A stretch of DNA of 37,330 nt from an uncultured Gammaproteobacteria bacterium (GCA_964567515.1 CAZMMW010000002.1:1-37330), one strand, 5' to 3'; positions 3,967-37,219 are shown, counted from the first letter of the stretch. Numbers and translations: made by a program. The notes: generated by a model not told the origin, from the letters alone.

Positions 3967-4541
3967 AAATATAATACTTGCTTAACTAACTTGTTTCTAA
4001 CGAATGTTACTATCATTGCTACCGCCAATACTGTTAAAACAGCCACCGTTATGTCTTTGATTAAAGAATTTAACAACCAAAAGCCATTACCTAAAAAATA
4101 TCCCACTACAATAAATAACACCGACCACAATAAACTGGTTAACAAATCTATTTTTAAAAACCCCTTGAAGTTCATTTTACTGACGCCAGCCAATAAAATT
4201 GATAGATGACCAAAGGAATAAATAAATTTGGTGACAAATAAAGTCTTTTTGCCGTTTTTAAAAAAATGTTGTTCAGTAGATTGTAATCTTGATCTGCTAA
4301 ACCACAATATCCGACCCCATTTATCTAAAAGCGGACACCCGCCTCGCTCACCTAATTTAAACCACAGAATACCGCCTATGGCCACTCCTGCATAAGTTAC
4401 CAATAAAGTCCAATATAAATTCAAAGTCTCATTGGAGACTAACCAACCGGTAGCTAAAGGAAAAATTTCTCCTTCTATGACTACCCCAAAAACAAAAAAA
4501 ATATAACCGTAGCTAGCAAGTAAAAAAGCGATGGTTTCCAT
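3948..4541 (-). CDS. DedA/VTT-domain family membrane protein
   Basis: 197-aa multi-TM ORF with DedA-like layout. Overlaps the ccdA start by 19 nt. Confidence 0.65.
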   Translation of the reverse strand: METIAFLLASYGYIFFVFGVVIEGEIFPLATGWLVSNETLNLYWTLLVTYAGVAIGGILWFKLGERGGCPLLDKWGRILWFSRSRLQSTEQHFFKNGKKTLFVTKFIYSFGHLSILLAGVSKMNFKGFLKIDLLTSLLWSVLFIVVGYFLGNGFWLLNSLIKDITVAVLTVLAVAMIVTFVRNKLVKQVLYLCLLKE

Positions 4542-4556
4542 AAACCTTATTTAGCT

Positions 4557-6011
4557 TTAAAAGTCTGGTAAACTAAATTCTCCTCGTGCCTGCTCATAAA
4601 CATAAGCCATCTGCAATAATAAATTTTCTGACCAGGCCGGGCCGATGAACTGCAGTCCTACTGGTAAATGATCCGCCAAACCACAAGGTACCGAAATAGC
4701 GGGCAAACCGGCAATACTGGCTGGTACGGTATTAACATCAGCTAAATACATGGCCAAAGGATCGGTAGTTTTCTCCCCCAGTCTAAAAGCTGTAGAGGGC
4801 GTAGTTGGCCCGATTACTGCATCTACTTGCTGAAAAACTTTTTTAAAATCATTTTTAATGGCCTGACGGGCTAAAATCGCCTGACGATAATAAGCGTCAT
4901 AATAACCGGCCGACAGAACATAAGTACCCAAAATAATACGTCGTTTAACCTCGCCGCCTAATAATTGACCGCGTGTTTTAGTGTAAAGAGTAAATAAATT
5001 AGGAGAACTAACAGTCTGGCCATAACGCAACCCATCGTAACGCGCCAAATTGGCACTGACCTCAGCGGGAGTAATAATATAATAGGTAGCCACGGCTAAA
5101 GACATGTTAGGTAAACTAACCTCTACTATCTGATGACCAAGATCTTGTATTATTTTGATAGCTTGTTTAACCGCGATTTCTACTTTGTTATCTAAACCTT
5201 CGGTAAAAAATTCCCGGGCCATACCCAAACGCAATTTTTTAGGCTCTTGTTTTAATAATTTAATATAATCAGGTACTGCTTGCTGTTGACTAGTAGCATC
5301 ATGCGCGTCACTGCCGGCGATGACTTGTAAGACCTGCGCTGCATCTCTGACTGTTGTAGCCAATGGTCCAACTGTATCAAAAGAGGAAGCCATGGCTATT
5401 AAACCATAACGAGATACGCGGCCATACGTTGGCTTGATTCCAACTAAACCACAAAAACTAGCTGGTTGTCTGATAGAACCGGCCGTATCGCTAGCTAATG
5501 ACACCATACATTCTCTGGCTGCCACAGCCGCTGCCGCACCTGATGATGAACCACCGGGTATATGTTTAAGATCCCACGGATTACAAGTGACCTGATAGGC
5601 AGAATTTTCCCCCGACGCTCCCATAGCAAATTCATCGCAATTGGTTTTGCCTAAAATGATGGCATCGGCCGCTAATAACCGATCTACCGCCGTGGCATTA
5701 TAAGGCGGCAGATAATTCTGTAACATTTTAGAAGCAGCAGTAGTTACAATATCCTTGGTCATTAACACATCTTTAATTGACACCGGTATCCCATACAAAC
5801 CGCCTAGTGTTTCACCGGCAGCAATTTTTTTATCAATGGTTTTTGCTTGAATTAAGGCCAACTTATCTGTCACTTGCAAATAAGCTTTAATTTTATTATC
5901 TAATTTAGCAATACGATCCAAATAAACCTTAGTTATCTCTACTGCCGACCAGTCACCTTTTTTTAAACCAGCCTGCACTTGACTAATAGATAAATTTAAT
6001 AAATAACTCAT
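4557..6011 (-). CDS. gatA: Asp/Glu-tRNA amidotransferase subunit A
   Basis: 484 aa with amidase signature GGSSSGAAAAVA and KDV/GKTNCDEFAMG motifs. Sits immediately downstream of gatC. Confidence 0.95.
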   Translation of the reverse strand: MSYLLNLSISQVQAGLKKGDWSAVEITKVYLDRIAKLDNKIKAYLQVTDKLALIQAKTIDKKIAAGETLGGLYGIPVSIKDVLMTKDIVTTAASKMLQNYLPPYNATAVDRLLAADAIILGKTNCDEFAMGASGENSAYQVTCNPWDLKHIPGGSSSGAAAAVAARECMVSLASDTAGSIRQPASFCGLVGIKPTYGRVSRYGLIAMASSFDTVGPLATTVRDAAQVLQVIAGSDAHDATSQQQAVPDYIKLLKQEPKKLRLGMAREFFTEGLDNKVEIAVKQAIKIIQDLGHQIVEVSLPNMSLAVATYYIITPAEVSANLARYDGLRYGQTVSSPNLFTLYTKTRGQLLGGEVKRRIILGTYVLSAGYYDAYYRQAILARQAIKNDFKKVFQQVDAVIGPTTPSTAFRLGEKTTDPLAMYLADVNTVPASIAGLPAISVPCGLADHLPVGLQFIGPAWSENLLLQMAYVYEQARGEFSLPDF

Positions 6012-24574: not shown

Positions 24575-26641
24575 TCATTGTCTACTAAAAGTCGGCAAGC
24601 CCTTGGCAAAATCAGTCATGCCCGGCGGCGGATTTAACTGCAAACGTCCATCAGCAATAAACTTTTCCGAAGCCTCGCCAGGATCAGCAGGATTAGTAAA
24701 AATTCTGGTTAAATTAAACTGTCTGGCAAACACTGTGCCCAGTACGGTCAGAGATGTAGGCGATGTTGAATCATCGCCGCTTTGGAAAATGCCACAACCA
24801 TCAAATAATCCTTTATTGTCAGCCTGCCAAACTCGACATTTAGGTAAGAGCCCGCACAAAGCCGGAGGACGGCCGCAAACAGAATTATCAATACAGCTTA
24901 AACCAATATTATTGCCAGTTAAACAAGCCTTAGCTGTGCCATAATTCCAGCGATGTCCTAAAATAATGAAATTACCAGCCAACTGTTTAACAGCGGGGTT
25001 TACTATCACATCCCCCAACACTATCCACACTACTGAAGCTAAATTTTGTCTGGTAACAGACCCTCCCACCATACTTGCATAATTAACATTACCCTCAATA
25101 TGTAAATCTCCCAGAACAATAACCGTACCAGCGCCCGAATCCTTACCAGCGCCATTTTGAATTTCCGTTGCTCCCAAAACAACATGCTTGCCCGGCGTGG
25201 CATAGCTAGAGTTAAATATGCCCATATCGCCAACTACATACACTTTATTATTTAAAGAATGACTAAAAATGGAATTAATATCATGAATTGGCACCTGAAC
25301 CACTTCATGATTATAGCGGTTAAGATTATTATTAACTTGCTTGGCCAAGCCCAAAAAATCAAACCGTCCTAATTTAAAGTTATAAGGCTCGCCCGTGTCG
25401 CTGGCCGGACTTAAATTAAGTTTGACGCCAGTTAAACGACATACTGGGTCGGAAGCCTGAAGCTCGCACTGAGTGGAAAAACGGCTGCTAATACTAGCAT
25501 TCTCGCCTACATGCACCAAGTACTGGGCGTTCCTAATATCTCTAGGCGCGGGAAAGTAAGTTTGAATGCCTTTTAAGCTAAAGACATCTCCGCCTTCCAC
25601 CCGCAAATAGGGAAAAATAATATCAACCACATTACAAGATCCGCCAAAACAAATCCAACCGGCGCCGTAAGCGTCAGTTAAACTGCAAGTGCCGCCCGGA
25701 CAATTAGTATTATTAATACAAGCCGAACCGTTGTTAGCGCCATAACGACAAAGTTTAACCACTGGTTCAGTCTGCCAAGCATAACCTTCTATTTTGCTGT
25801 TGTCTAAATCTACTGTTAAACCATAACTTCTTTTATCAGTACATAAAAAATTGGTTGAATTACTATCACAATTCTTAGAACTCAAAGAAATCCAACCCCG
25901 CCCCTTAGGTTCAGCTAAAATTTTAGCCCAACCGCCATTAACCGGGGCCATGACGGTTTCATTACAATCTGGCGTGCCATCAGGAGTCCCTTTTGGGCCG
26001 GTAACATCTTCACAATAAAAAGTAATGTCTAAAGACTGATTGCCCGGCGGACGGTCGCCGGCTAGCAGCTTGCCCTGGCAAGCCGAACCAAAACAAATCC
26101 AGCCCCAAGCGCCGGGTGCTACGCAACTGCCCCCCGGGCAATCGCTGTTAGTTGTACAACGGTTGCCTTTGTTACTGCCGCTATTACATAACCTGCCGGC
26201 TGCTGGCACTGGACCATGCCACGCCATACCAGAAATAGCGCCGCCGGTAGGATTAGGATTCTGGTCAAACTGGTCAAAAGTTAAATGAGAAATAGCGCCG
26301 CCGGTAGGATTAGGATTCTGGTCAAAAGTTAATTTTAAGCCATAATCAACACCAGCGGTGGTAATACACGGATCCGGATTCGGCAACTCATTTAATTTAG
26401 TACAATTTTGCGCATTTAAAGAAATCCAGCCGGCATTAGAAAGTTTATAATTAGCTCCATCGCCAATCGCCGCATTACCCATCCAAGCCCAGCCAGTAAT
26501 GTTATTGGTCTCGGCTGCTTGAGCTGAAGATGCGGCAGGGGAAGATAAAGAAGCCAACAAAAAAACAGACACGCTAGATACTGCCAAAAGAATAATGGTC
26601 GTAATACCTGTCCAATATAAAATTTGTATTTGTTTTATCAT
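24575..26641 (-). CDS. large secreted Cys-rich repeat protein, pilus-locus associated
   Basis: ATG at 26641 (MIKQIQILYW...) gives a signal-like N-terminus ending SSAQA. Contains 26 Cys and two C-x6/7-G-x2-C-x5-CPGG(S/T)C-...-GWICFG(S/G)xC modules. Four G(W/Y/M)AW...GWIS(L)/GWICF repeats. Beta-helix-like C-terminal half. Confidence 0.8.
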   Translation of the reverse strand: MIKQIQILYWTGITTIILLAVSSVSVFLLASLSSPAASSAQAAETNNITGWAWMGNAAIGDGANYKLSNAGWISLNAQNCTKLNELPNPDPCITTAGVDYGLKLTFDQNPNPTGGAISHLTFDQFDQNPNPTGGAISGMAWHGPVPAAGRLCNSGSNKGNRCTTNSDCPGGSCVAPGAWGWICFGSACQGKLLAGDRPPGNQSLDITFYCEDVTGPKGTPDGTPDCNETVMAPVNGGWAKILAEPKGRGWISLSSKNCDSNSTNFLCTDKRSYGLTVDLDNSKIEGYAWQTEPVVKLCRYGANNGSACINNTNCPGGTCSLTDAYGAGWICFGGSCNVVDIIFPYLRVEGGDVFSLKGIQTYFPAPRDIRNAQYLVHVGENASISSRFSTQCELQASDPVCRLTGVKLNLSPASDTGEPYNFKLGRFDFLGLAKQVNNNLNRYNHEVVQVPIHDINSIFSHSLNNKVYVVGDMGIFNSSYATPGKHVVLGATEIQNGAGKDSGAGTVIVLGDLHIEGNVNYASMVGGSVTRQNLASVVWIVLGDVIVNPAVKQLAGNFIILGHRWNYGTAKACLTGNNIGLSCIDNSVCGRPPALCGLLPKCRVWQADNKGLFDGCGIFQSGDDSTSPTSLTVLGTVFARQFNLTRIFTNPADPGEASEKFIADGRLQLNPPPGMTDFAKGLPTFSRQ

Positions 26642-26655
26642 AAACAAGCATTTCT

Positions 26656-26803: not shown

Positions 26804-27055
26804 GTTCAGGATGACAGTCTCCTCCTGTCATCCTGAACATTCCCTTTTTGTCATCCTGAGCGCCAAGCGAAGGATCTCATGGACGATAGGGTTTTAACCA
26901 GGGGATGTTTCGCTAATACTCAACATGACAATGTTTCCTGTCATTCTGAGGCTTCAGCCGAAGAATCTAAGAGATGTTTTGTTAGCGCTTAACATGACAT
27001 ATAATAAAAAACTGATTCTGATGTTCTAGAATCGGCTTGAATTGATATAAGGTAC
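26804..27055. repeat. R1-L: array of a roughly 100-bp palindromic unit (tgtcatYctgag...ctcaacatgaca) plus a hairpin tail
   Basis: Near-identical to 36883-37219 apart from one extra unit there. Opens with a perfect 13-bp inverted repeat, gttcaggatgaca / tgtcatcctgaac (26804-26838). Confidence 0.85.
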
Positions 27056-27149: not shown

Positions 27150-27395
27150 ATGCAAGCCTTACCTGATTTTTTTAAATCCATTCTTTGGTCTTATCGTTTG
27201 GCTGATTGTGATCCTCAAAAAATGAAACGGGTAATTATTCGTCAAGCCTTTGCTTATGGCGCCTTAGCTCATTGGCAATGGGTTTGCCGTTATTATGGCA
27301 AGTCGGAGGTTATTAGAATTCTTAAAAGTTTTGACTCCCGAGTCGTGCGTGAGAAAACTTTAAATTTAGCCGTCGCTCTGTTAGATTTAAACTAA
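27150..27395 (+). CDS. small protein upstream of AbiEii, putative cognate antitoxin-like partner
   Basis: 81 aa ending 3 nt before the toxin ATG. The sequence ILWSY...DP.K....II.Q...YG.L..W.W...YG resembles small proteins I recall being paired with AbiEii genes. Confidence 0.45.
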   Translation: MQALPDFFKSILWSYRLADCDPQKMKRVIIRQAFAYGALAHWQWVCRYYGKSEVIRILKSFDSRVVREKTLNLAVALLDLN

Positions 27396-27398
27396 ACT

Positions 27399-28022
27399 AT
27401 GTTTCCGCAAGCGCTAGATCATGCCACACAGGTCGTTTGGGATCAATGCGGTTTTTTTTCGGATTGTTATTTAGCTGGCGGTACAGCGCTGGCTTTGCAA
27501 TTAGGTCATCGCCGCTCGGTTGATCTGGATTTCTTTTTTAACGAGCCGATTAAACGAATGTTTTTACCGCTAATTGAAAAAAAATTACAATCGTCAGCCG
27601 CTTTGCTGGTTAACACCGCCGATGAGTTAACCGTTACCATCTTGGGTGTTAAAATTACTTGTTTGTATTACCCCTTTACTTTGCTTGAGCCGGTTATTCC
27701 TACAACTGTTATTCCTTTGGCCGGAGTGCGCGACCTAGCCTCTATGAAAGCTTATGCTTTAGGTCGGCGACAATCACTTAAAGACTACGTTGATCTTTAT
27801 GTTATTTTGACGCGCGGTTTAATTTCTCTCCCAGTCTTATTGGCTGATTCCAAGGTCAAGTACGGAGATTTATTTAATGACCGGGTTTTTTTGGAACAGC
27901 TTTTATATACTGCTGATTTAGAGCCAGAGGCGATAGATTGGCTTGTGCCGAAAGTAGAGGTAGAAGAAATTAAGAGTTTTTTTACCGAATTGGTTAATAA
28001 TCACAAAAACGATCTGCTTTAA
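27399..28022 (+). CDS. nucleotidyltransferase AbiEii/AbiGii toxin family protein
   Basis: N-terminal YLAGGTALALQLGHRRSVDLDFF motif is typical of the family. Confidence 0.75.
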   Translation: MFPQALDHATQVVWDQCGFFSDCYLAGGTALALQLGHRRSVDLDFFFNEPIKRMFLPLIEKKLQSSAALLVNTADELTVTILGVKITCLYYPFTLLEPVIPTTVIPLAGVRDLASMKAYALGRRQSLKDYVDLYVILTRGLISLPVLLADSKVKYGDLFNDRVFLEQLLYTADLEPEAIDWLVPKVEVEEIKSFFTELVNNHKNDLL

Positions 28023-28122: not shown

Positions 28123-28866
28123 GTGTCATTTTTCCAACAGCTCTCTGGCGCTCAACATGACGATTGCTATTGTCATGTTGAGTATTATGGTGTAATGCGT
28201 ATAATTGACCGCCTAGTTAATGAACATCCTGAACGTATAACTATACGTTTAACTGTAACTGCCTTCTCGCTTCCTTACTTGGAAGAAACCGCCGAATTTT
28301 TATGTAAACGTTACCCTGGTATCCCGCAACAATACGAGCCGGCTATGGATTCGTGTTTTGCTGCCCAAGGAATTGCTGATTTCTCTATGCGTCTATTTGT
28401 AGATCAACTAATCAAGGCTTATCAAATAGGGATGAAATATAGCACTCCGATTGGCAATTCCTTTGCAAGAATATCACGATTTAACAGCGACATCAATCGT
28501 TTTTGTGGAGTAAGTTCAATGAAATATACCATTCTTCCAGATGGCAATATAGCTAGTTGCAGCCGAGTACATACCTCCACCGTTCGTTCAACACCATTTT
28601 ATCTTGGTAATATCAATGAGGTTGTTAATAAAAAACGTCCCGTATTCAAATTGCCAACAGTATGTAATGATTGCTATGCAAGATTTGCCTGCAAAGGCGG
28701 TTGCTATGCGCTTCGATATTCCTTTGGTATAAATAAAAATGATGGATTTTCTTTTTGTCATGAGATACGCAGATTGCTTCGTGAAATACTTATTTTACAA
28801 ACAAATAGAAAGGTGGTGAAAAATAGTGGTTCAAACAAATCAAACACCAATACAAACCGAGGATGA
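28123..28866 (+). pseudogene. 5'-truncated radical SAM/SPASM maturase paralog (C-terminal half only)
   Basis: From about 28195 it aligns to residues from about 205 to the end of the 30106 protein (ITIRLTVT/LGIRCTIS; FCGV...P.G....C.RV). The SPASM domain is intact (C-x12-G-x4-C and CNDCYARFACKGGC). The CxxxCxxC core is missing. The apparent N-terminus is translated R1 repeat. Confidence 0.75.
28124..28190. repeat. R1 unit-junction remnant
   Basis: tgtcat...ctcaacatgac gattgctatt gtcatgttgag has perfect 11-bp arms at 28151-28161 and 28172-28182. It matches the R1 unit junction at 37088-37115. Confidence 0.75.
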
Positions 28867-28960
28867 TCTCAATCAAATCGCTATCGTTAGTGTTTCTATT
28901 TCTGAAAAAGAATTCGCCGCTAACGCTTGCGAATGCGACGATTGCGATATCGGTGATTAG
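28826..28960 (+). CDS. putative Cys/Asp-rich precursor peptide P2 (44 aa)
   Basis: GTG start preceded by AAAGGTGGTGA. Translation: VQTNQTPIQTEDDLNQIAIVSVSISEKEFAANACECDDCDIGD. The core aligns with P1 (C..x..CD(L/I)G). Followed by a strong terminator. Confidence 0.5.
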   Translation: MVQTNQTPIQTEDDLNQIAIVSVSISEKEFAANACECDDCDIGD

Positions 28961-28971
28961 TTCCTTCCAAC

Positions 28972-29002
28972 AACGAGTAGCTATAGACGCTACTCGTTTT
29001 TT
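28972..29002 (+). terminator. rho-independent terminator
   Basis: aacgagtagc tatagac gctactcgtt has a perfect 10-bp stem running into a T-run. Confidence 0.75.
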
Positions 29003-29022
29003 ATAATATTATTTAATCAGTT

Positions 29023-29463
29023 ATGATAAATAGATTGACTAAAAAAAGGCTACTAAAAGCTATCTCTTTAATTCCACCATCACCTAACCAAGCCTATATA
29101 GAAAAGGTAATTGAAGCTGTTCATTCGCTATTTGATCAACATAAATATTATGTCTTAACTACTAAAAATTACCGCCTATCTCGAGGGGCTACTTTAAATT
29201 TTATTCTTAAAAATCGCTTACGAACCTGCGGCAGTATAACCACCGTTTTAGCCCATATCTTACGCTCAGTCGGTTTTACAGTAATGCTAGTTGACGGCAA
29301 ATTAAGAAAAGACAATAAGTGGAGCAAACATAGTTGGCTTAAAGTAAAACTGGGCAAAACCTGGCACAGTTTTGATCCTTTTTCAAAAAATTTTCTCATA
29401 GACAAAAAAACGCATAAAGTATTAGGGGTTTATTCGTCGTGGAAAGAAATTAAGCAAAAATAA
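29023..29463 (+). CDS. transglutaminase-like cysteine protease-fold protein
   Basis: Cys-His-Asp pattern: RTCGSITTVLAHILRSVGF ... KHSWLKV ... WHSFDP, with spacing typical of the transglutaminase core. Confidence 0.65.
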   Translation: MINRLTKKRLLKAISLIPPSPNQAYIEKVIEAVHSLFDQHKYYVLTTKNYRLSRGATLNFILKNRLRTCGSITTVLAHILRSVGFTVMLVDGKLRKDNKWSKHSWLKVKLGKTWHSFDPFSKNFLIDKKTHKVLGVYSSWKEIKQK

Positions 29464-29477
29464 TTCTCTTGCCGGTG

Positions 29478-29690
29478 GCGAACGAGTTTCACTATTCATT
29501 CTTCTAGCTTCTTGCTTCCTGATTCCAAATTCCAAAATTATTACTGAAAACCAATAACTAACTAGGAACTAAAAAGATTCCAACATTTACAACACTATAA
29601 CAAATTAAACTCAAAACTTAATTTTTCATTTTTAATTTTTAACTTTAAACTCTCATCACAGTTTTTGACAGTATAAACTGGTAATTACAC
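29478..29690. repeat. R2 copy 1
   Basis: gcgaacgagtttcactattcattcttc ... catttacaacactataacaaattaaactcaaaacttaatttttcatttttaatttttaactttaaactctcatcacagYttttgRcagtata. Shared with 36357-36647. The core is shared with 32419-32522. Confidence 0.85.
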
Positions 29691-29718
29691 CGACCACGCT
29701 TAAACTGTAATATTCAAA

Positions 29719-29746
29719 TTGACAAATAAAATAATTGTTATAAAAT
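29719..29746 (+). promoter_or_regulatory. sigma70-like promoter for the P1-rSAM operon
   Basis: TTGACA, a 16-nt spacer, then TAAAAT. Lies about 125 nt upstream of the P1 ATG. Confidence 0.5.
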
Positions 29747-29872
29747 ATTAATGGTTCTTTGAAAACTCCTCATGAGTAAATCAAGTGCAATATTGTTAAA
29801 TGTGTTATAAACATAGCAACAGCTTGAATGCAAAAAACCATTGGTTATTAAGAAAGGAGGTGAAGGAACACT

Positions 29873-29998
29873 ATGGATATAAAACGTTTAACCGAGCTCA
29901 GTCAAAATATTGTAAAACTTCCGGAATTCACGACCATGCGTGTACCAGAAGGGTGCAATGACTGCTGTTGTGATTTAGGCTGTGAAACGTATTCATAG
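29873..29998 (+). CDS. putative Cys-rich precursor peptide P1 (41 aa)
   Basis: AAAGGAGGTGAAGG SD lies 7 nt before the ATG. Translation: MDIKRLTELSQNIVKLPEFTTMRVPEGCNDCCCDLGCETYS. Sits 107 nt upstream of the rSAM gene on the same strand. Confidence 0.75.
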   Translation: MDIKRLTELSQNIVKLPEFTTMRVPEGCNDCCCDLGCETYS

Positions 29999-30028
29999 TC
30001 ACCGCCATCCAAACAATATAAAGCAGAC

Positions 30029-30064
30029 GAGGGAGTAATAAAGTATATACTTTATTACTCCCTC
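30029..30064 (+). promoter_or_regulatory. perfect 36-nt palindrome between P1 and the rSAM gene
   Basis: gagggagtaataaagtatatactttattactccctc equals its own reverse complement. No T-run follows. Confidence 0.7.
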
Positions 30065-30105
30065 ACTAGTTACAACATAATACCTAAAATAAGGAGATAA
30101 TATAA

Positions 30106-31368
30106 ATGCCACTACATCGCGTCTTTAAGATGTCTGTTCCACCAATGGGAACTATCGTATTTATGCCAGATGAAGAAAAACTCTTCCTAGTGGACGATGC
30201 CTCAACAATTCCTGACGAAATTATGAGTGAAACTCCGATTCCTTCTTTTACTCGTTTACCAGACTTCACTTATAGAGCAGCTCACTTGATCTTGAATAAC
30301 TTATGTAATCTGCAATGTACCTATTGTTATGCCAATGCCGGTGACTCGACTCCAATTGAAATGTCACCAATGGTAATGCGTGCCACCATAACCAAAATTG
30401 TATCTGACACTATTACCTTGGGACAATCAATATTCGAGCTTGGATTCATAGGGGGCGAGCCAACACTATCACTTGCGCTTATGAACGAAGGGGAACAGCT
30501 GGCGCGTCAATTGGCGGCTGAAGCTGGAATTAGAGCACGGGTCGGTATTGTAAGCAATGGTTACTATTCTGCTGATGTTGGTGATTATATTCTGAAGTAT
30601 CTTGACTATGCTACCATCTCTTTAGATGGTCCTCAAGAAATTCAAGATCATCAACGCCCGACACGAGGTGGGCGCGGATCCTTTGCTCAAGTCTATAACA
30701 ACGCCCAACGTCTATATGACGCGGGTTTCCCTCTTGGAATCCGTTGCACGATTTCTCGCGAAAGCGTTAATAGGCTTCCTCAAATAATTGAATTCCTGCA
30801 CAATTCGTTTCCTAAATCTGTAATCGGCTTAGAACCTCTGCAGGAATGTGGACGCTGTGCTCTTACTCACGCCTGCGGACCAAATCCAGAGGAATTGGTA
30901 GATCAAATGATTGAAGTGCTAAAGTTGGTATTATCGCGTCAAATCAAACTTAAATCTTCAATCTTGCGCTTTAAGATTCAAGGATCTGACATCAGTTTCT
31001 GTGGGGTGAATGGTCAAAATTTTGCTGTAACGCCACAAGGTTATGTAACCGCCTGCACTAGAGTAATTTCACACCAAGAACGCTCCGCTCAAATTTTTCA
31101 CTATGGATCTTATGACCACAACCTTAACCGTTTTGTCTTTGATACTGTAAGGTACGCCTGGCTGAAAAAGATAGTTGTTGACTCAATTGAACAGTGTGCC
31201 GATTGCTTCGCTCGATACAATTGTAAGGGAGATTGCGCGGCAATCAAAGCTGATGCCTATGGCGACGTTTTAATTACCCAACCCAGCCCTCGCTGTTCGT
31301 CAATCCGTCGATTAACAGAGGCTCTATTTCGACTACGTGTTGGATTAGAACCGGCAGCTAGCAAATAA
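30106..31368 (+). CDS. radical SAM/SPASM-domain peptide maturase
   Basis: AAGGAG SD. CNLQCTYCYA (CxxxCxxC) about 65 aa from the N-terminus, GGEP motif. SPASM: FCGVNGQNFAVTPQGYVTAC, CADCFARYNCKGDC and a downstream Cys. Confidence 0.9.
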   Translation: MPLHRVFKMSVPPMGTIVFMPDEEKLFLVDDASTIPDEIMSETPIPSFTRLPDFTYRAAHLILNNLCNLQCTYCYANAGDSTPIEMSPMVMRATITKIVSDTITLGQSIFELGFIGGEPTLSLALMNEGEQLARQLAAEAGIRARVGIVSNGYYSADVGDYILKYLDYATISLDGPQEIQDHQRPTRGGRGSFAQVYNNAQRLYDAGFPLGIRCTISRESVNRLPQIIEFLHNSFPKSVIGLEPLQECGRCALTHACGPNPEELVDQMIEVLKLVLSRQIKLKSSILRFKIQGSDISFCGVNGQNFAVTPQGYVTACTRVISHQERSAQIFHYGSYDHNLNRFVFDTVRYAWLKKIVVDSIEQCADCFARYNCKGDCAAIKADAYGDVLITQPSPRCSSIRRLTEALFRLRVGLEPAASK

Positions 31369-31471: not shown

Positions 31472-32356
31472 ATGACTATTATTCTAAAATCAAATAAGCA
31501 ACTCTTTGCTATGCATTTATTAATTGCGCTCTTGGAAAAAAGGGTAAATATATTTAATAATCGTAAATTAGAAAAACTCTTTAATTCTCTCTTGGTTGAT
31601 AAAAATTTTAAAAAATTAATCTCTAAGCTACGAGCTAATAATCTTAATTCTAACTCCTGCCGACGTTTTATAAATTTACTACTTCTACCACCTAATTCTC
31701 AATTTATTGATGAAGAATTATTAACACCATACCAAAACTTAAAACCTATATTAAACTCTTACATGAATTCTGACCCCATTGAAAAATTTTTTCAATTATA
31801 CTGCGAATATTTAACTAAATTTATTAAATATAAAAACCGCCTTTTTCAATCAGAAGCCCAACGTCTTCTGCGTTTCTTTCGCTTGCCTAGTTCTTGGTTT
31901 GGTATAATTTACGTTCATATTAATGCCCTTGATTCACTAGGGGTGGGGAATAATTACTTCCGTAAACATTCCTCTATAATCTCTGTGCCAACGCTGTCAG
32001 GGGGAACTATAAGTCTTTCAGGATTCCGCCATGAACTAATGCACATCATCCTGAAAAAATTATGGGTAAATAATCTGACTGCAACACATTTTCATCTGCA
32101 AGTTCCGAGCAACTACCAAACAGATAGTCTTCGGGTTCAATTTGATGAATATTTTATTGTAACAGCAAATATTTTCTTTCTCCCAGCCGATCGACAAAGT
32201 AAACAATTGGAATATTTAGCCAAACACGGTTTTTCTGATATTAATATCTTTTATAATTTCCTTAGATTAAATTTCCTAACCAGATCTAAAAAGCTAGAAG
32301 TAAAACTGTTAAAAGAGCTCCTAGATCTGCTTGAAAAACAGTTAAATAAATTATGA
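31472..32356 (+). CDS. hypothetical protein with HExxH motif (putative metallopeptidase)
   Basis: 294 aa, very AT-rich. Single HELMH motif (GFRHELMHIILKK). No third ligand identified. Confidence 0.4.
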   Translation: MTIILKSNKQLFAMHLLIALLEKRVNIFNNRKLEKLFNSLLVDKNFKKLISKLRANNLNSNSCRRFINLLLLPPNSQFIDEELLTPYQNLKPILNSYMNSDPIEKFFQLYCEYLTKFIKYKNRLFQSEAQRLLRFFRLPSSWFGIIYVHINALDSLGVGNNYFRKHSSIISVPTLSGGTISLSGFRHELMHIILKKLWVNNLTATHFHLQVPSNYQTDSLRVQFDEYFIVTANIFFLPADRQSKQLEYLAKHGFSDINIFYNFLRLNFLTRSKKLEVKLLKELLDLLEKQLNKL

Positions 32357-32418
32357 TTAGCAAATTAACCAAACAAAAGTTGCCCCAAACTGTTTCCTTC
32401 ATTCCCCTCGGGGACTAT
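32353..32418 (+). pseudogene. 5' remnant of a second transglutaminase-like gene
   Basis: The ATG overlaps the upstream stop (ATGA). MISKLTKQKLPQTVSFIP compares with MINRLTKKRLLKAISLIP at 29023. Homology ends where R2 copy 2 begins. Confidence 0.55.
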
Positions 32419-32522
32419 CATTTACAACACTATAACAAATTAAACTCAAAACTTAATTTTTCATTTTTAATTTTTAACTTTAAACTCTCATCACAGCTTT
32501 TGACAGTATAGACCAGTTACAC
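32419..32522. repeat. R2 copy 2 (core only)
   Basis: Near-identical to 29584-29690 and 36545-36647. Confidence 0.85.
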
Positions 32523-32528
32523 TATAAT
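32500..32528 (+). promoter_or_regulatory. consensus sigma70 promoter
   Basis: TTGACA (inside R2), exactly 17 nt, then TATAAT (just outside R2). Lies 110 nt upstream of the ATG at 32638. Confidence 0.6.
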
Positions 32529-32637: not shown

Positions 32638-33312
32638 ATGATAGCGGGAAATATAAAATTAAAGATGATAAGCTATGGTGTTCATTCGTCTATTAAGGGT
32701 AAATACTTTAAAGAATTTTCAAAGGCCGCTGATAAATTGATAAAATTCTTCCCGACTTCTCCATCTCTAGTTGAAATACACCTCTTTTCTAAACGAGGTG
32801 CTTTTGCTAAAAAAATTAAAAAGAAAAAAATTCCCAACTGGCTAATGGGGTATACACCAATAAGTAATCCTAACAAAATTTTTATTTATACCAAAGATTC
32901 TAGATTACTATCTAGTATTAGATTAAAAAAATTAGTACGACATGAATTAGCTCATGTTTTTACTAATCAGCTTAATCCTACTTTACCAACCTGGATAAAA
33001 GAAGGACTGGCGGTTTATTTAGCTAAACAGATTATCAAACCTTCTATTACCAAACGCGATTGGAAATTTATTAAACCGAATAAAAATTATAATTTTTTTG
33101 GCAGAAATTGGAACTCGCTGGTAAACAACCACCGAGCTTACAATAATTCCGGTTTGGTTGTTCAACAATTTATAAAAAGTTATGGACAAAAGAATTTTTT
33201 AAATGTATTAACCAAACATCAAACTAACCAAGATATAATCTTATCACTGGCTCTGTCTTTCAAAAAAACCAGTAAATCAATTATGGTGAATTTAGAAAAA
33301 CTATTATGCTAA
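32638..33312 (+). CDS. peptidase MA-like zinc metallopeptidase (HExxH...E)
   Basis: VRHELAHVFTNQLNPTLPTWIKEGLAVYLA follows the HExxH + W..EGlA gluzincin pattern. Confidence 0.6.
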   Translation: MIAGNIKLKMISYGVHSSIKGKYFKEFSKAADKLIKFFPTSPSLVEIHLFSKRGAFAKKIKKKKIPNWLMGYTPISNPNKIFIYTKDSRLLSSIRLKKLVRHELAHVFTNQLNPTLPTWIKEGLAVYLAKQIIKPSITKRDWKFIKPNKNYNFFGRNWNSLVNNHRAYNNSGLVVQQFIKSYGQKNFLNVLTKHQTNQDIILSLALSFKKTSKSIMVNLEKLLC

Positions 33313-33326
33313 GAGTAAAATAGATA

Positions 33327-34571
33327 ATGAATGATACTATTATGGTAAATCAAACGACTAAGAATCGAGTATGGATTTTTTATCTTAGTTCCTTTCTTAA
33401 TGCCCTATCAAGTGGTGTAGTAGGACCCTTGTTAATTGTGTATCTTCTTACTTTAAACCTTTCCACTGCCCAAGTTGGACTACTGCTAGCGATTGAACGC
33501 GGCGCTACCATAATAACTGAATTTCCTACTGGTGTTTTTGCTGACAAATATGGCCGACGTAAATCCCTTCTTATCTCCTTTGGTCTACTCGCCTTAATCC
33601 TTACTGCCTGGTTTTTTACTAAAAGCTACTTGGTTTTTATTATTCTTTCCTTTTGTTGGGGGCTAGCTTACACTTTCCAGAGTGGCGCTAAGGAATCTTT
33701 TGTGATTGACTCGCTTAATCTAGCCAACGATGATACTTCAAGAAATAAGGTATTCTCACGACTCGCTGCTGCTGGCAATTTTGGTTTAGTGATTGGTGGA
33801 TTAATAGCGGCCGGATTAACACTAGTTTCTCTACGTTCCATCTGGTTAGCGGCAGCGGTTGCTAACGGCTTCCTCTTCCTGCTCTTCCTGACAGCTACGC
33901 ACGAAATACCAAACAGCTCCGATACTAAAATTAATCGACAAGGAACGCTAAAAGGATTTATTTCATCATCACTTCAAAGTCTACGATCTATTTCTGCTTC
34001 ACGGACAATTTCTCGCCTCATGGGGATAACTATAATAGTTGGCCTAGTTATGGCAATCTATGGATTCTCTTACCCCATACTGTTTAAGACGCTTGGTTTG
34101 CCGCTCTACTACTTTGGCTTACTCGGTTCTGTGGCGGCAATCTTAGGAATTACTGGTGCTTTATTAGGAGAGAAAATAGTTAAACGTGCTGGATATCGCA
34201 CTTCACTCACCTACCTTACTTTTATTCTTATTATACTTTTTTCTATATTTGGCTTCACTGAAACTTTGGGAGTTACTATTCTACTTTTTGCTACAATTGA
34301 GTTAACGCTCCACGGTTGGTTTCCTATATATAATTCATTCCTAAATAAATTTATTCCAAATGGATTACGAAGTAGTCTATTATCAATAAATTCAACCTTA
34401 AGTTTGCTGGCTCTGGCTGGTGGCGAGCTTATGGCCGGCGCCTTAGTAATGATAGTCTCACCTGCTCAACTTATTGCCTGGGGAGGTATTCTACTTGTAA
34501 TCATCCTACTGCTACTTAGAAATATCAATCACTCTACAACAACGAATAATACACCAAAGGCAACGCGATGA
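33327..34571 (+). CDS. MFS transporter
   Basis: 414 aa with about 12 TM segments. MFS motif A: GVFADKYGRRKSLL. Confidence 0.85.
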   Translation: MNDTIMVNQTTKNRVWIFYLSSFLNALSSGVVGPLLIVYLLTLNLSTAQVGLLLAIERGATIITEFPTGVFADKYGRRKSLLISFGLLALILTAWFFTKSYLVFIILSFCWGLAYTFQSGAKESFVIDSLNLANDDTSRNKVFSRLAAAGNFGLVIGGLIAAGLTLVSLRSIWLAAAVANGFLFLLFLTATHEIPNSSDTKINRQGTLKGFISSSLQSLRSISASRTISRLMGITIIVGLVMAIYGFSYPILFKTLGLPLYYFGLLGSVAAILGITGALLGEKIVKRAGYRTSLTYLTFILIILFSIFGFTETLGVTILLFATIELTLHGWFPIYNSFLNKFIPNGLRSSLLSINSTLSLLALAGGELMAGALVMIVSPAQLIAWGGILLVIILLLLRNINHSTTTNNTPKATR

Positions 34572-34634: not shown

Positions 34635-34745
34635 TTAACAACACCCGCCTGCGCGACACATCGGATTCATATTGAGTTTACCAAGAATCCGCGCTGGCCT
34701 ACGAAGCGGCTTTGCTTTAAGACCAGTAATCGCTTGTTTTTTCAT
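34635..34745 (-). CDS. putative Cys-rich precursor peptide P3 (36 aa)
   Basis: The ATG directly abuts the rSAM TAG (TAGATG). GGAGGTGG SD lies 8 nt upstream. Translation: MKKQAITGLKAKPLRRPARILGKLNMNPMCRAGGCC. Confidence 0.7.
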   Translation of the reverse strand: MKKQAITGLKAKPLRRPARILGKLNMNPMCRAGGCC

Positions 34746-36107
34746 CTATACCACCTCCTTTCGAGCGTCTTTCTGTTTTATAGTGCCATTCTCAGTCATA
34801 ACTTCTAAAAGCAGAGAATGTGTTACTTTTTTAAAAACCTCACATCGATACCAAAACGCTTCTAGTGAGTTGGTATATTTACCATATTCTGAAGTTATGT
34901 AACATCCACCCATACACTGCCCTTCAATTTCGCAACCTTTACACGCTTTGATGTTTCCTATAACCCGCGAGGTGATAAGAGAACGGAAACTATCAGATTG
35001 AAAAATATCGTCTAACCCTTCTACCGTTCCTAATTCAGTACGACTATAGGAGCAAGGTAAAACAATCCCTGAGGGAGAAACAGATATTCCCATTCCAGTA
35101 AAAGCCGAGCAATTAAAGAGTTTATTCTTGAGTCGAGATTCAAACATATTTTTGAATGGTTTATCCCACAAACCACCAACTGTGATATTTCTTTTTTCTC
35201 CTAGTTTCTTAAACCACAACAACATATCAACTAGCTCATCGGGATCCTTTTGAAGAGAATTAATCATGTCAGGTTCAAAAGAACATGAGGTAATACCACG
35301 ATCGGCTAAAAAATCAAAGAAATTTTCTTTAATTCTATCAATATTCTGATCTGTGAGTGTTAAACAAAACCATTCAACTTTCTTACCTTCTTTATCCAGA
35401 TTATCCCATCCTGAGATAATACGCCGAAAAGTACCGTTGCCAGAAACTAATCGACGAATTTGGTCGTTTACCTCTAATGGCCCATCTAAACTCGTAGTAA
35501 CTGTAACATTATTTTGCGCTAAGTAACCTGCTCGTGTTGGCGTTATTAAAGACGCATTACTATTGGTAGAAAATGCAAATTCATAACTATTACCATACCT
35601 ACCAACAGAATAATCTATCACTTTTTGCATCAAATTCCACGCTAGTAACGGCTCACTGCCGCCAAAATAAATCTCAACTTTATTCCTTTGTCTCCTCTTA
35701 ATAAAATTCATAAACCTATCAATTGCATTTTTGGCAATAGACCAAGTCATCCGACGCACTTTTGACAACTTCTTGTTAGAAGCCTCTATAACCTTCCGTG
35801 CTAAACAATATGAACAATTGAAGTTACAACGCTCATCTAAAATTAACCCTAGAGAAGACAGGTGTTGCCCCCTACAAATTCTATCAATATACTTCTTTAT
35901 CGTCCGATGTAAATGTATTCTTTCATCTTGCCACTCGGGAATTAAAAAATGGTGTTTAATAAATAAATGAAGCCACTGCTCTAAATTCTCAATGGTATAT
36001 TGAGCTTGTATGTCTTGTAAACTGCAGGGGCGGCGAAAAAGATTGAGAACAAAAATACACTGTTCGTTTAGAATTATAGGGTGCCCAAAGAGAGAATTAT
36101 AAACCAA
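34746..36107 (-). CDS. radical SAM/SPASM-domain peptide maturase
   Basis: CNFNCSYCLA about 95 aa from the N-terminus. SPASM: FNCSAFTGMGISVSPSGIVLPC and CKGCEIEGQCMGGC. The track start is a TTG. The frame stays open to 36200 with family-like sequence (HLIIKKYQDGTLVYNSL) but no ATG/GTG, so the start is uncertain. Confidence 0.88.
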   Translation of the reverse strand: MVYNSLFGHPIILNEQCIFVLNLFRRPCSLQDIQAQYTIENLEQWLHLFIKHHFLIPEWQDERIHLHRTIKKYIDRICRGQHLSSLGLILDERCNFNCSYCLARKVIEASNKKLSKVRRMTWSIAKNAIDRFMNFIKRRQRNKVEIYFGGSEPLLAWNLMQKVIDYSVGRYGNSYEFAFSTNSNASLITPTRAGYLAQNNVTVTTSLDGPLEVNDQIRRLVSGNGTFRRIISGWDNLDKEGKKVEWFCLTLTDQNIDRIKENFFDFLADRGITSCSFEPDMINSLQKDPDELVDMLLWFKKLGEKRNITVGGLWDKPFKNMFESRLKNKLFNCSAFTGMGISVSPSGIVLPCSYSRTELGTVEGLDDIFQSDSFRSLITSRVIGNIKACKGCEIEGQCMGGCYITSEYGKYTNSLEAFWYRCEVFKKVTHSLLLEVMTENGTIKQKDARKEVV

Positions 36108-36334: not shown

Positions 36335-36363
36335 ACAAAAACCCGCTCGCTATTCAGCGAACG
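36335..36363 (-). terminator. minus-strand intrinsic terminator upstream of the rSAM-P3 promoter region
   Basis: On the minus strand: CGTTCGCT gaat AGCGAGCG (8 bp, one G-U pair), then ggtttttgtt. Confidence 0.45.
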
Positions 36364-36647
36364 AGTTTCACTATTCATTCTTCTTTCTTTTACCTTCCAG
36401 CTTCTAGCCACCATGGACAGATTAGTTTTAAAAATTTCAACTACAACATTTACAACATTACAACAAATAAAACAGCTTCTAGTTTCCAAATTCCAAAATT
36501 ATTACTGAAAACCAATAACTAACTAGGAACTAAAAAGATTCCAACATTTACAACACTATAACAAATTAAACTCAAAACTTAATTTTTCATTTTTAATTTT
36601 TAACTTTAAACTCTCATCACAGCTTTTGGCAGTATAAGCCAGTTACT
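36357..36647. repeat. R2 copy 3 (longest, with about 95 bp of internal extra sequence)
   Basis: Collinear with copy 1 at both ends. Internal partial duplication: caacatttacaacattacaacaaataaaac versus caacatttacaacactataacaaattaaac. Confidence 0.85.
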
Positions 36648-36882
36648 CTACCAAGATCAGGATCTATATAAACTCCAACCACAAACTCGCCATTAGGACA
36701 AGAGGATGCACCTTGCTCAAAACTATTAATCCGGAACTAAAAGATTTATCTGATGATATTACTTAGATGCTGAAATACCTGTCCGCCGTCCGCCTTCCTG
36801 ATGAGTGTACCTAAACCACCAATTCGTTGATGGGTTGATAACAAACGGAGGCAGCTTTGGATTTAGACTTTGGCAGACGGGA

Positions 36883-37219
36883 GTTCAGCCTGACGGTTGT
36901 TATTGTCATCCTGAACATTACCTTTCTGTCATCCTGAGCGCCAAGCGAAGAATCTCATGGACGATAGGGTTTAACAATGGGATGTTTCGCTAATACTCAA
37001 CATGACAATGTTTCCTGTCATTCTGAGGCTTCAGCCGAAGAATCTCATGGACAACAGGGTTTTAACCAGGGGATGTTTCGCTAATACTCAACATGACGAT
37101 TGTCGTTGTCATTCTGAGGCTTCAGCCGAAGAATCTAAGAGATGTTTTGTTAGCGCTTAACATGACATATAATAAAAAGCCGATTCTGTTTAGAATCGGC
37201 TTGAATTAATATAAGGTAC
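36883..37219. repeat. R1-R: array of the roughly 100-bp palindromic unit, one unit longer than R1-L
   Basis: Direct repeat of 26804-27055. Both copies end in gaatcggcttgaatt(g/a)atataaggtac. Confidence 0.85.
37171..37202 (-). terminator. rho-independent terminator for the right-edge minus-strand gene
   Basis: aagccgattct gttt agaatcggctt has an 11-bp stem. On the minus strand it is followed by tttttatt. A degraded copy lies at about 27010-27038. Confidence 0.6.

Follow-up and report, generated by a model that had tools for sequence, protein, structure and literature searches.

The window, the 37,330-nt stretch of DNA analyzed here, encodes a 41-aa peptide, P1, that is probably a RiPP precursor modified by the radical SAM (rSAM)/SPASM enzyme encoded immediately downstream; we put the probability at roughly 80%. 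Comparative sequence data show P1 to be a conserved gene that is genetically linked to one rSAM/SPASM clade and to an HExxH protein. Judged by homology, the P1 system is predicted to work like a ranthipeptide or SCIFF system, yet it lies outside every modelled family searched (Pfam, NCBIfam). For the specific chemistry, Cys-to-Asp thioether links in the P1 core, the odds appear about even.

The P1 gene and its signals

The window carries housekeeping and type IV pilus genes and therefore represents chromosomal DNA. The ORF proposed for P1 was recovered with its ATG at 29873, and the 41-aa translation quoted for it was reproduced exactly (Table 1). Translation also confirmed the five Cys claimed for the final 14 residues (C28, C31, C32, C33, and C37). 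A ribosome-binding site had been expected just 5' of the start codon and is present as AAAGGAGGTGAAGG, the last base of which is at -7, with the ATG 6 nt further on. The TTGACA-16-TAAAAT sequence reported upstream matches 11/12 consensus positions and is the best site in the interval 28700-30200; promoter-like sites in this interval number 5, versus 5.5 expected from shuffles, which is no excess. The gene located 107 nt downstream of P1 matches Radical_SAM and SPASM maturase models, in agreement with the placement of P1 directly 5' of an rSAM/SPASM gene.

The Cys density of P1 is unusual within the window. Across all six frames, P1 alone has five or more Cys within 14 residues. At least three Cys in the last 14 residues occur in 4/220 window ORFs (ORFs of at least 30 aa), and three of these four adjoin the three rSAM genes of the window.

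Two features of the original prediction stood in part. The amphipathic, leader-like N-terminus holds for P1, with a hydrophobic moment of the leader of 0.57 that is reached by 2.9% of shuffles, but not as a family feature: amphipathicity tested across P1 homologs was found in P1 itself only. The expectation that automated annotation would miss the gene is correct for other family loci that lack the gene call, including two NCBI MAG records and one JGI record, but P1 is already gene-called in a protein collection (P0121), as are several of its homologs.

Table 1. Positions of the P1 gene, its signals, and neighboring features in the window.
Feature	Position	Strand	Description
Putative sigma-70-like promoter of P1	29719..29746	+	TTGACA-16 nt-TAAAAT; consensus match
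P1 ribosome-binding site	29853..29866	+	AAAGGAGGTGAAGG; GGAGG at 29856-29860; read from sequence
P1 precursor ORF	29873-29998	+	ATG start, 41 codons, stop 29996-29998; product MDIKRLTELSQNIVKLPEFTTMRVPEGCNDCCCDLGCETYS
P1 leader part	29873..29953	+	Residues 1-27, MDIKRLTELSQNIVKLPEFTTMRVPEG
P1 core part plus stop codon	29954..29998	+	Residues 28-41, CNDCCCDLGCETYS
Hairpin between P1 and rSAM gene	30029..30066	+	Perfect, 16 bp; no U-tract on + strand
Radical SAM/SPASM peptide maturase	30106..31368	+	420 aa; Pfam Radical_SAM PF04055, 2.5e-14
Conserved HExxH protein, putative leader peptidase	31472..32356	+	294 aa
Second HExxH protein, Peptidase_MA_2-like, accessory	32638..33312	+	224 aa; Pfam PF13485, E=1.9e-6, below gathering score
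MFS transporter, candidate exporter, accessory	33327..34571	+	414 aa; Pfam MFS_1, 8e-32
Transglutaminase-core protein (cysteine-protease fold), accessory	29023..29463	+	146 aa; Pfam Transglut_core, 6e-7
Paralogous second precursor	28826..28960	+	44 aa, ...LNQIAIVSVSISEKEFAANACECDDCDIGD; GTG start, site AAAGGTGGTGA, terminator 28972-28998

Conservation of the peptide family

Contigs encoding rSAM orthologs at 37-50% identity to the enzyme encoded at 30106-31368 (the 30106 enzyme) were fetched. To find further loci, genomes were scanned with the enzyme alignment, and metagenomes with a degenerate DNA pattern that describes the core. An ORF of 39-54 codons lies immediately 5' of the orthologous rSAM gene in 13 further distinct loci (L001, L002, L008, L028, L031, L037, L011/13, L042, L006/7, L012/14, L015, L016, and L017), or 14 including the window, and each homologous ORF has a AAAGGAGG-type Shine-Dalgarno (SD) site 5-10 nt before its start. 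Conservation upstream of orthologous rSAM genes had been proposed as a check on P1, and its outcome supports the reading of P1 as a leader-plus-core precursor for the adjacent rSAM/SPASM enzyme. Relatives of the enzyme at about 35% identity or less occur in other gene contexts, and there the peptide is absent.

A word-indexed search with the P1 peptide recovered P1 itself and one 41-aa homolog with an identical core. Four more family members, all ending in ...EACxDCCCD-x2-C-x-TY-x, were identified in a profile search of 1.84 billion representative proteins; two of the eight matches from that search (P0125 and P0128) were discarded as repeat proteins. The metagenome scan for C-x-D-C-C-C-D-x2-C returned 21 stretches, including four family members (L028, L031, L037, and L042); L042 derives from Hainich H41 samples. 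The remaining stretches were set aside as chance matches inside other frames or ORFs, and the match in L026 was rejected, having neither a start codon nor an rSAM gene. None of 18 family peptides matched NCBIfam precursor models (including SCIFF) or Pfam at E<=10, and a cluster look-up yielded no name or accession for any of them. An 810-aa Azospirillum MFS protein found in one peptide cluster looks like a clustering artifact.

In an alignment of 18 sequences (A4), C28, D30, C32, and D34 are invariant, and L6, C33, and C37 are conserved in at least 90%. Cys spacing had been part of the proposed check; of the five P1 Cys, C31 alone is conserved in one subtype only. The leaders share the motif L-x2-[LI]-[SA]...L-P, in which the first L is L6, and E-[GA] stands right before the first Cys. 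Residues following C37 vary across the family (E, D, S, Q, G, C) and thus give no indication of a third fixed acceptor. Two types of core can be distinguished, E-[AG]-C-x-D-C-C-C-D-[LV]-x-C-x-[TS]-[YF]-x (type 1) and C-C-D-x-C-C-D-D-Y-[IV]-C-S-S-D (type 2), and these track the two rSAM subclades.

The family peptides are bipartite, combining a leader motif with a core in which Cys and Asp are invariant, and the two parts differ in substitution pattern. Between P1 and the L001 homolog, codon differences in the core are 9 synonymous and 1 non-synonymous, versus 7 synonymous and 16 non-synonymous in the leader, and Cys codons alternate freely between TGC and TGT. By this measure the core is under purifying selection and the leader is freer to diverge. 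The conserved ORF, the SD sites, the fixed residues, and the codon pattern thus indicate a peptide that is translated and is under tighter constraint in its core than in its leader.

The rSAM/SPASM enzyme and its characterized relatives

The three Cys of the CX3CX2C motif of the 30106 enzyme (C67, C71, and C74) are invariant in 18 rSAM orthologs. Also invariant in these orthologs are the auxiliary-cluster Cys C299, C317, C364, C367, C377, and C397; C251 and C373 are conserved in at least 90%. Among NCBIfam models the PapB maturase (NF047865) ranks top, at 119 bits versus an equivalog cut-off of 340, followed by nif11-type, SCIFF (94 bits, cut-off 425), CefB, DynA, and QhpD (82 bits, cut-off 453) maturases. 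Every NCBIfam equivalog cut-off is missed, those of the sactisynthase models StsB and RumMC by far. Alignments to the PapB and SCIFF maturase models are full-length and run through the SPASM region; the Pfam SPASM model gave no reported match at E<=0.01.

Among solved structures, CteB is the nearest in sequence (5WGG, E=4.7e-15). It is also the best fold match (5WHY/5WGG, TM 0.73-0.75) of the AF2 model of the enzyme (pLDDT 86.9), and the next matches are anSME, ChlB, TigE, and SuiB. The enzyme has an N-terminal extension of ~55 residues; AF2 places five short beta strands in residues 3-40 and predicts no helix ahead of the rSAM core. If the model is correct, this beta element, which lacks the helices of a canonical RRE, may represent either a shortened RRE or some other docking element. 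The reaction cannot be assigned from homology, because the enzyme falls far below the cut-offs and the nif11-type and DynA C-C/C-N chemistries rank nearly as high.

PapA/PapB, the system for the ranthipeptide freyrasin in Paenibacillus polymyxa, is like that of P1 in combining a leader-plus-core precursor with an rSAM/SPASM maturase and in the key place of Cys and Asp in the core. The PapB product contains Cys-to-Asp/Glu thioethers (PMC9413430). However, PapA has six Cys-X3-Asp motifs, whereas the P1 family has the arrangement C-x-D-x-C-C-D-x(2,3)-C, with adjacent Cys and no Cys-X3-Asp repeat. The P1 precursor is also much shorter than PapA, the modelled N-terminal domain of the P1 enzyme appears truncated and beta-only relative to that of PapB, and the P1 system has a dedicated HExxH partner and hosts among Patescibacteria rather than Firmicutes. 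SCIFF systems (CteA/CteB, Tte1186; TIGR03973/TIGR03974) resemble P1 in that the precursor measures ~40-45 aa, has its Cys clustered at the C-terminus, and is encoded immediately 5' of an rSAM/SPASM gene, but the P1 family differs from them in Cys spacing, invariant Asp residues, and taxonomic range.

In the QhpC/QhpD system, as predicted for P1, the rSAM/SPASM enzyme has a substrate that contains Cys and Asp/Glu, and QhpD forms Cys-to-Asp/Glu thioethers. QhpC, however, is the ~100-aa gamma subunit of quinohemoprotein amine dehydrogenase and is encoded within a dehydrogenase operon; such genes are absent from the window. Cys-rich cores that are cross-linked by rSAM/SPASM or twitch enzymes also occur in sactipeptides (subtilosin/AlbA, SkfA/SkfB, thurincin), CcpM, CefB 'Cys-every-fifth', and CXXX-repeat peptides. 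SkfB and several Cys-rich rSAM families are among the matches of the P1 enzyme, all below cut-offs, but their precursor motifs are unrelated to that of P1. In ranthipeptides the thioether joins the Cys sulfur to a non-alpha carbon and in sactipeptides to the alpha-carbon, and sactipeptide acceptor residues are usually not Asp.

Predicted maturation of P1

In the pathway that we infer for P1, from modification and cross-link type through cleavage site and export to biological role, the leader (residues 1-27) would dock the peptide onto the rSAM/SPASM enzyme, with residues 28-41 as the core. The enzyme would cleave SAM reductively and remove a hydrogen atom from a core residue that serves as acceptor. 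A Cys sulfur would then be joined to the acceptor carbon, forming intramolecular thioether rings. Ranthipeptide-type rings of very small size, closed between Cys and Asp, are the likeliest products, and C37 might contribute a third link. Such rings are favored because Cys and Asp are the sole invariant residues of the core and the nearest characterized enzymes, PapB, CteB, and QhpD, all join Cys to carbons in the side chains of Asp, Glu, or Thr. The invariant residues are arranged as a tandem C-x-D-x / C-x-D (C28-N-D30, C32-C33-D34). PapB tolerates Cys-Xn-Asp with n = 0-6 and requires the carboxylate (PMC9413430, PMC12373016).

P1 may instead be an rSAM RiPP precursor that undergoes other chemistry, such as sactionine formation (S to alpha-carbon), epimerization, C-C or C-N cross-linking, or another Cys transformation. 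The position of the enzyme below all family cut-offs would allow this, and it also matches StsB, RumMC-type sactipeptide, DynA, nif11-type, and anaerobic sulfatase maturases, with SkfB and anSME among its structural and sequence neighbors. However, that only Cys and Asp are invariant in the core fits donor-acceptor pairs, and cyclophane or C-C chemistry would need a conserved aromatic residue, of which the core has none. Given also that the best matches by sequence, HMM, and fold form thioethers to carbons of side chains, we consider other chemistry unlikely and Cys-to-Asp thioether formation the preferred reading.

A metalloprotease-like partner and accessory genes

A homolog of the 294-aa HExxH protein is encoded downstream of the rSAM gene, adjacent to it or one gene away, in all 11 distinct loci that extend far enough. 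Its invariant residues (R186-H187-E188-x2-H191, K195, R221, and E226) make up a signature that resembles that of a gluzincin-type metallopeptidase. The profile of this protein gave no PDB match and no significant Pfam match, only weak DUF4932 and M78 hints. A word-indexed homolog search returned the protein itself only, and the homologs were found by tblastn in the fetched loci. The single-sequence AF2 model of the protein (pLDDT 37.8) was left out of the fold search. We predict that the HExxH protein cuts off the P1 leader, probably near E26-G27, which corresponds to the E-[GA] before C28.

Several other genes occur near the cassette, but none of the Peptidase_MA_2-like, transglutaminase-core, MFS, and His_Phos_1 genes is universal to family loci. 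Peptidase_MA_2-like genes similar to that of the window are also present in L003, L042, and L017, and a transglutaminase-core homolog adjoins the rSAM gene in L003. The MFS transporter probably exports the product in the organism from which the window derives; it is not conserved in other family loci. A His_Phos_1 (histidine-phosphatase-family) gene adjoins the cassette in L006 (7270-7842), L011 (2394-2969), L028 (2307-2876), L042 (10592-11122), and L003 (7113-7775). It is absent from the window and is a possible accessory tailoring or immunity gene.

The gene content of the loci bears on a second alternative, in which P1, rather than being exported as a natural product, would bind metals or clusters inside the cell or would supply the scaffold for a peptide-derived cofactor (compare PqqA and MftA), after maturation by the rSAM and HExxH proteins. 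Five to six Cys plus acidic residues within 14 positions would bind metals well, and the rSAM and HExxH genes, not the transporter, are what is conserved among loci. The host genomes are reduced, and in these a housekeeping role could explain retention. However, the family is rare (few members in 1.84 billion representatives), patchy, and lost in one lineage, and such a distribution is typical of accessory natural products rather than cofactors. In addition, no conserved redox or dehydrogenase partner genes occur nearby, and we find this alternative improbable, at distinctly longer odds than those of a modified peptide with other chemistry.

An intergenic hairpin conserved in position

A strong hairpin is present between the precursor stop codon and the rSAM start codon in 14/14 loci; its position is conserved, and the sequences are unrelated. 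The family hairpins have 10-17 perfectly paired bp, mostly without a U-tract (e.g., L001 612-645 and L012 5133-5161). In the window, the 116-nt stretch that contains the hairpin has a folding energy of -27.3 kcal/mol and a z-score of -5.9, and 0/200 shuffles were as stable. The sole Rfam matches were sub-threshold hits of the hairpin to plastid 3'UTR and miRNA models, and these were rejected as generic hairpin hits. We propose that the hairpin probably stabilizes or partly terminates a short transcript, so that the precursor would outnumber the enzyme.

The same elements could be read as an attenuator, in which ribosomes stalling at Cys codons would set the hairpin, and hence rSAM expression, by cysteine supply, and the P1 product would be functionless. 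Cys codons do form a run late in this short ORF, with a strong hairpin and then the enzyme gene after it, and the position of the hairpin is conserved in all loci. However, the conservation is at the protein level and reaches Asp, Glu, Thr/Tyr, and leader residues; the hairpin lies ~30 nt beyond the stop codon, mostly lacks a U-tract, and showed no alternative pairing with the ORF; and the downstream enzyme is from peptide-modifying families. On this evidence, a Cys-sensing attenuation role for P1 was judged very unlikely. That P1 is a chance ORF in an AT-rich intergenic region, as its small size and the many spurious short ORFs of the window might suggest, has virtually no probability left, as the conservation data (13 other loci with homologs, the synonymous pattern, and the conserved SD site) already refute it, along with a Cys density that is unique in the window.

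Other candidate precursors and repeats in the window

The 44-aa paralog of P1 (Table 1) can be aligned with the P1 family and shares the C/D columns that are invariant there. Its gene overlaps, at the 3' end, an rSAM/SPASM fragment (28123-28866, +) from which the N-terminal radical SAM half is missing. The match of this fragment to PapB is confined to positions 139-319, and a copy of a 32-nt palindromic repeat makes up its first codons. The region 28123-28960 looks like a decayed sister cassette, and the 44-aa peptide might still be served by the intact 30106 enzyme. Directly upstream of the truncated fragment is a toxin-antitoxin-like pair, DUF6922 / AbiEii nucleotidyltransferase (27150-28022, +).

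A third candidate precursor of 36 aa, MKKQAITGLKAKPLRRPARILGKLNMNPMCRAGGCC (34635-34745, -), is encoded right after the stop codon of the third rSAM/SPASM gene of the window (34746-36107, -). It has AAAGGAGGTGG 5 nt before its start and is followed by a terminator consisting of a hairpin and T-run. This peptide is basic, ends in C-x-x-G-G-C-C, and is unrelated to the P1 family.

Repeats of several kinds were identified. Three intergenic copies of a 178-nt direct repeat occur at 29514-29691, 32349-32526, and 36475-36652, the second and third with 93% and 68% identity to the first, and one copy stops 28 nt before the P1 promoter. This repeat has no Rfam match and may be a shared regulatory region or a small mobile element. 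A 48-nt repeat is found at 29478-29525 and 36357-36404. Repeats of ~230-320 nt (26826-27055 and 36904-37219; segments up to 96-97% identical) are built around the 32-nt palindrome CTCAACATGACnnnnnnnnGTCATnnTGAG, which is present in 5 copies. They flank a 10-kb block with all three rSAM genes, the peptides, and the toxin-antitoxin pair, and the whole peptide island may be inserted or mobile. Elsewhere in the window, a 690-aa protein (24575-26647, -) has repeated Cys-/Gly-rich motifs (e.g., C..G.N.G..C.....CPGG.C) and no Pfam hit, and its gene adjoins a type IV pilus cluster (PilM, PilB/T-like ATPases, PilC-like).

Hosts and significance of the family

Named hosts of the family are Candidatus Saccharibacteria, Uhrbacteria, Azambacteria, and 'Patescibacteria group' MAGs. 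A type 2 cassette (L014/L012, CAZWTD010000025.1) is on an 11.5-kb contig, GC 0.53, from a bin labelled uncultured Gammaproteobacteria; this label reflects either mis-binning or transfer outside Patescibacteria. In the next-nearest rSAM clade (33% identity), one locus (L043) has a downstream ORF of 123 aa (4365-4736) with a different Cys-rich C-terminus, SCTSHVAGVYCSCNKVNACSCVGHTRSSGGGSICTCVPVH, which is probably a distinct precursor type.

One ortholog locus lacks the peptide (L003; Candidatus Azambacteria MAG, GCA_026397285.1, 6001-7323). A precursor ORF was sought within 6 kb on either side of it and none was found. The rSAM protein encoded there has Tyr at a near-invariant SPASM cysteine, plus a C-terminal extension, and the locus keeps the rSAM, HExxH, Peptidase_MA_2-like, and transglutaminase-like genes. 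Absence of the peptide together with the Cys-to-Tyr change is consistent with joint decay, and L003 is probably a degenerating cluster.

A Cys-rich peptide beside an rSAM/SPASM enzyme follows a well-known logic, so the P1 system is an extension of a known kind and not a surprise. We also considered a bolder possibility, that the peptide, the rSAM clade, and the HExxH protein constitute a RiPP class confined to Patescibacteria, with chemistry for which no natural counterpart is described. An example would be stacked one-residue Cys-x-Asp thioether rings around a Cys-Cys(-Cys) cluster, perhaps with free metal-binding thiols; the leader would be recognized without a canonical RRE, and the product would serve in signaling to, or acting on, the hosts of episymbionts. 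This possibility is tentative and, taken as a whole, rather doubtful.

The family is notable mainly for its genome-reduced CPR hosts and for its unusual, very compact Cys/Asp core. The genomes of Patescibacteria (CPR) are very small and are usually reported to be nearly devoid of biosynthetic gene clusters. Our search of the literature for CPR/Patescibacteria with ranthipeptides, sactipeptides, or rSAM RiPPs returned general surveys of biosynthetic gene clusters only and nothing on the P1 family, a result that falls short of proving absence. One survey recorded no biosynthetic gene clusters in its Patescibacteria genomes (PMC11613949). The three-gene cassette of precursor, rSAM/SPASM, and HExxH genes is conserved mostly in Saccharibacteria, Uhrbacteria, and other Patescibacteria bins, and it is undetectable through the curated precursor and maturase families searched (Pfam, NCBIfam). 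The signature C-x-D-x-C-C-D could be used to mine further members. With a 41-aa substrate and one enzyme, the cassette offers a compact, testable system for what may be a new thioether-type macrocyclization with very small rings, and its predicted product is a candidate molecule in the interaction of CPR bacteria with their hosts.
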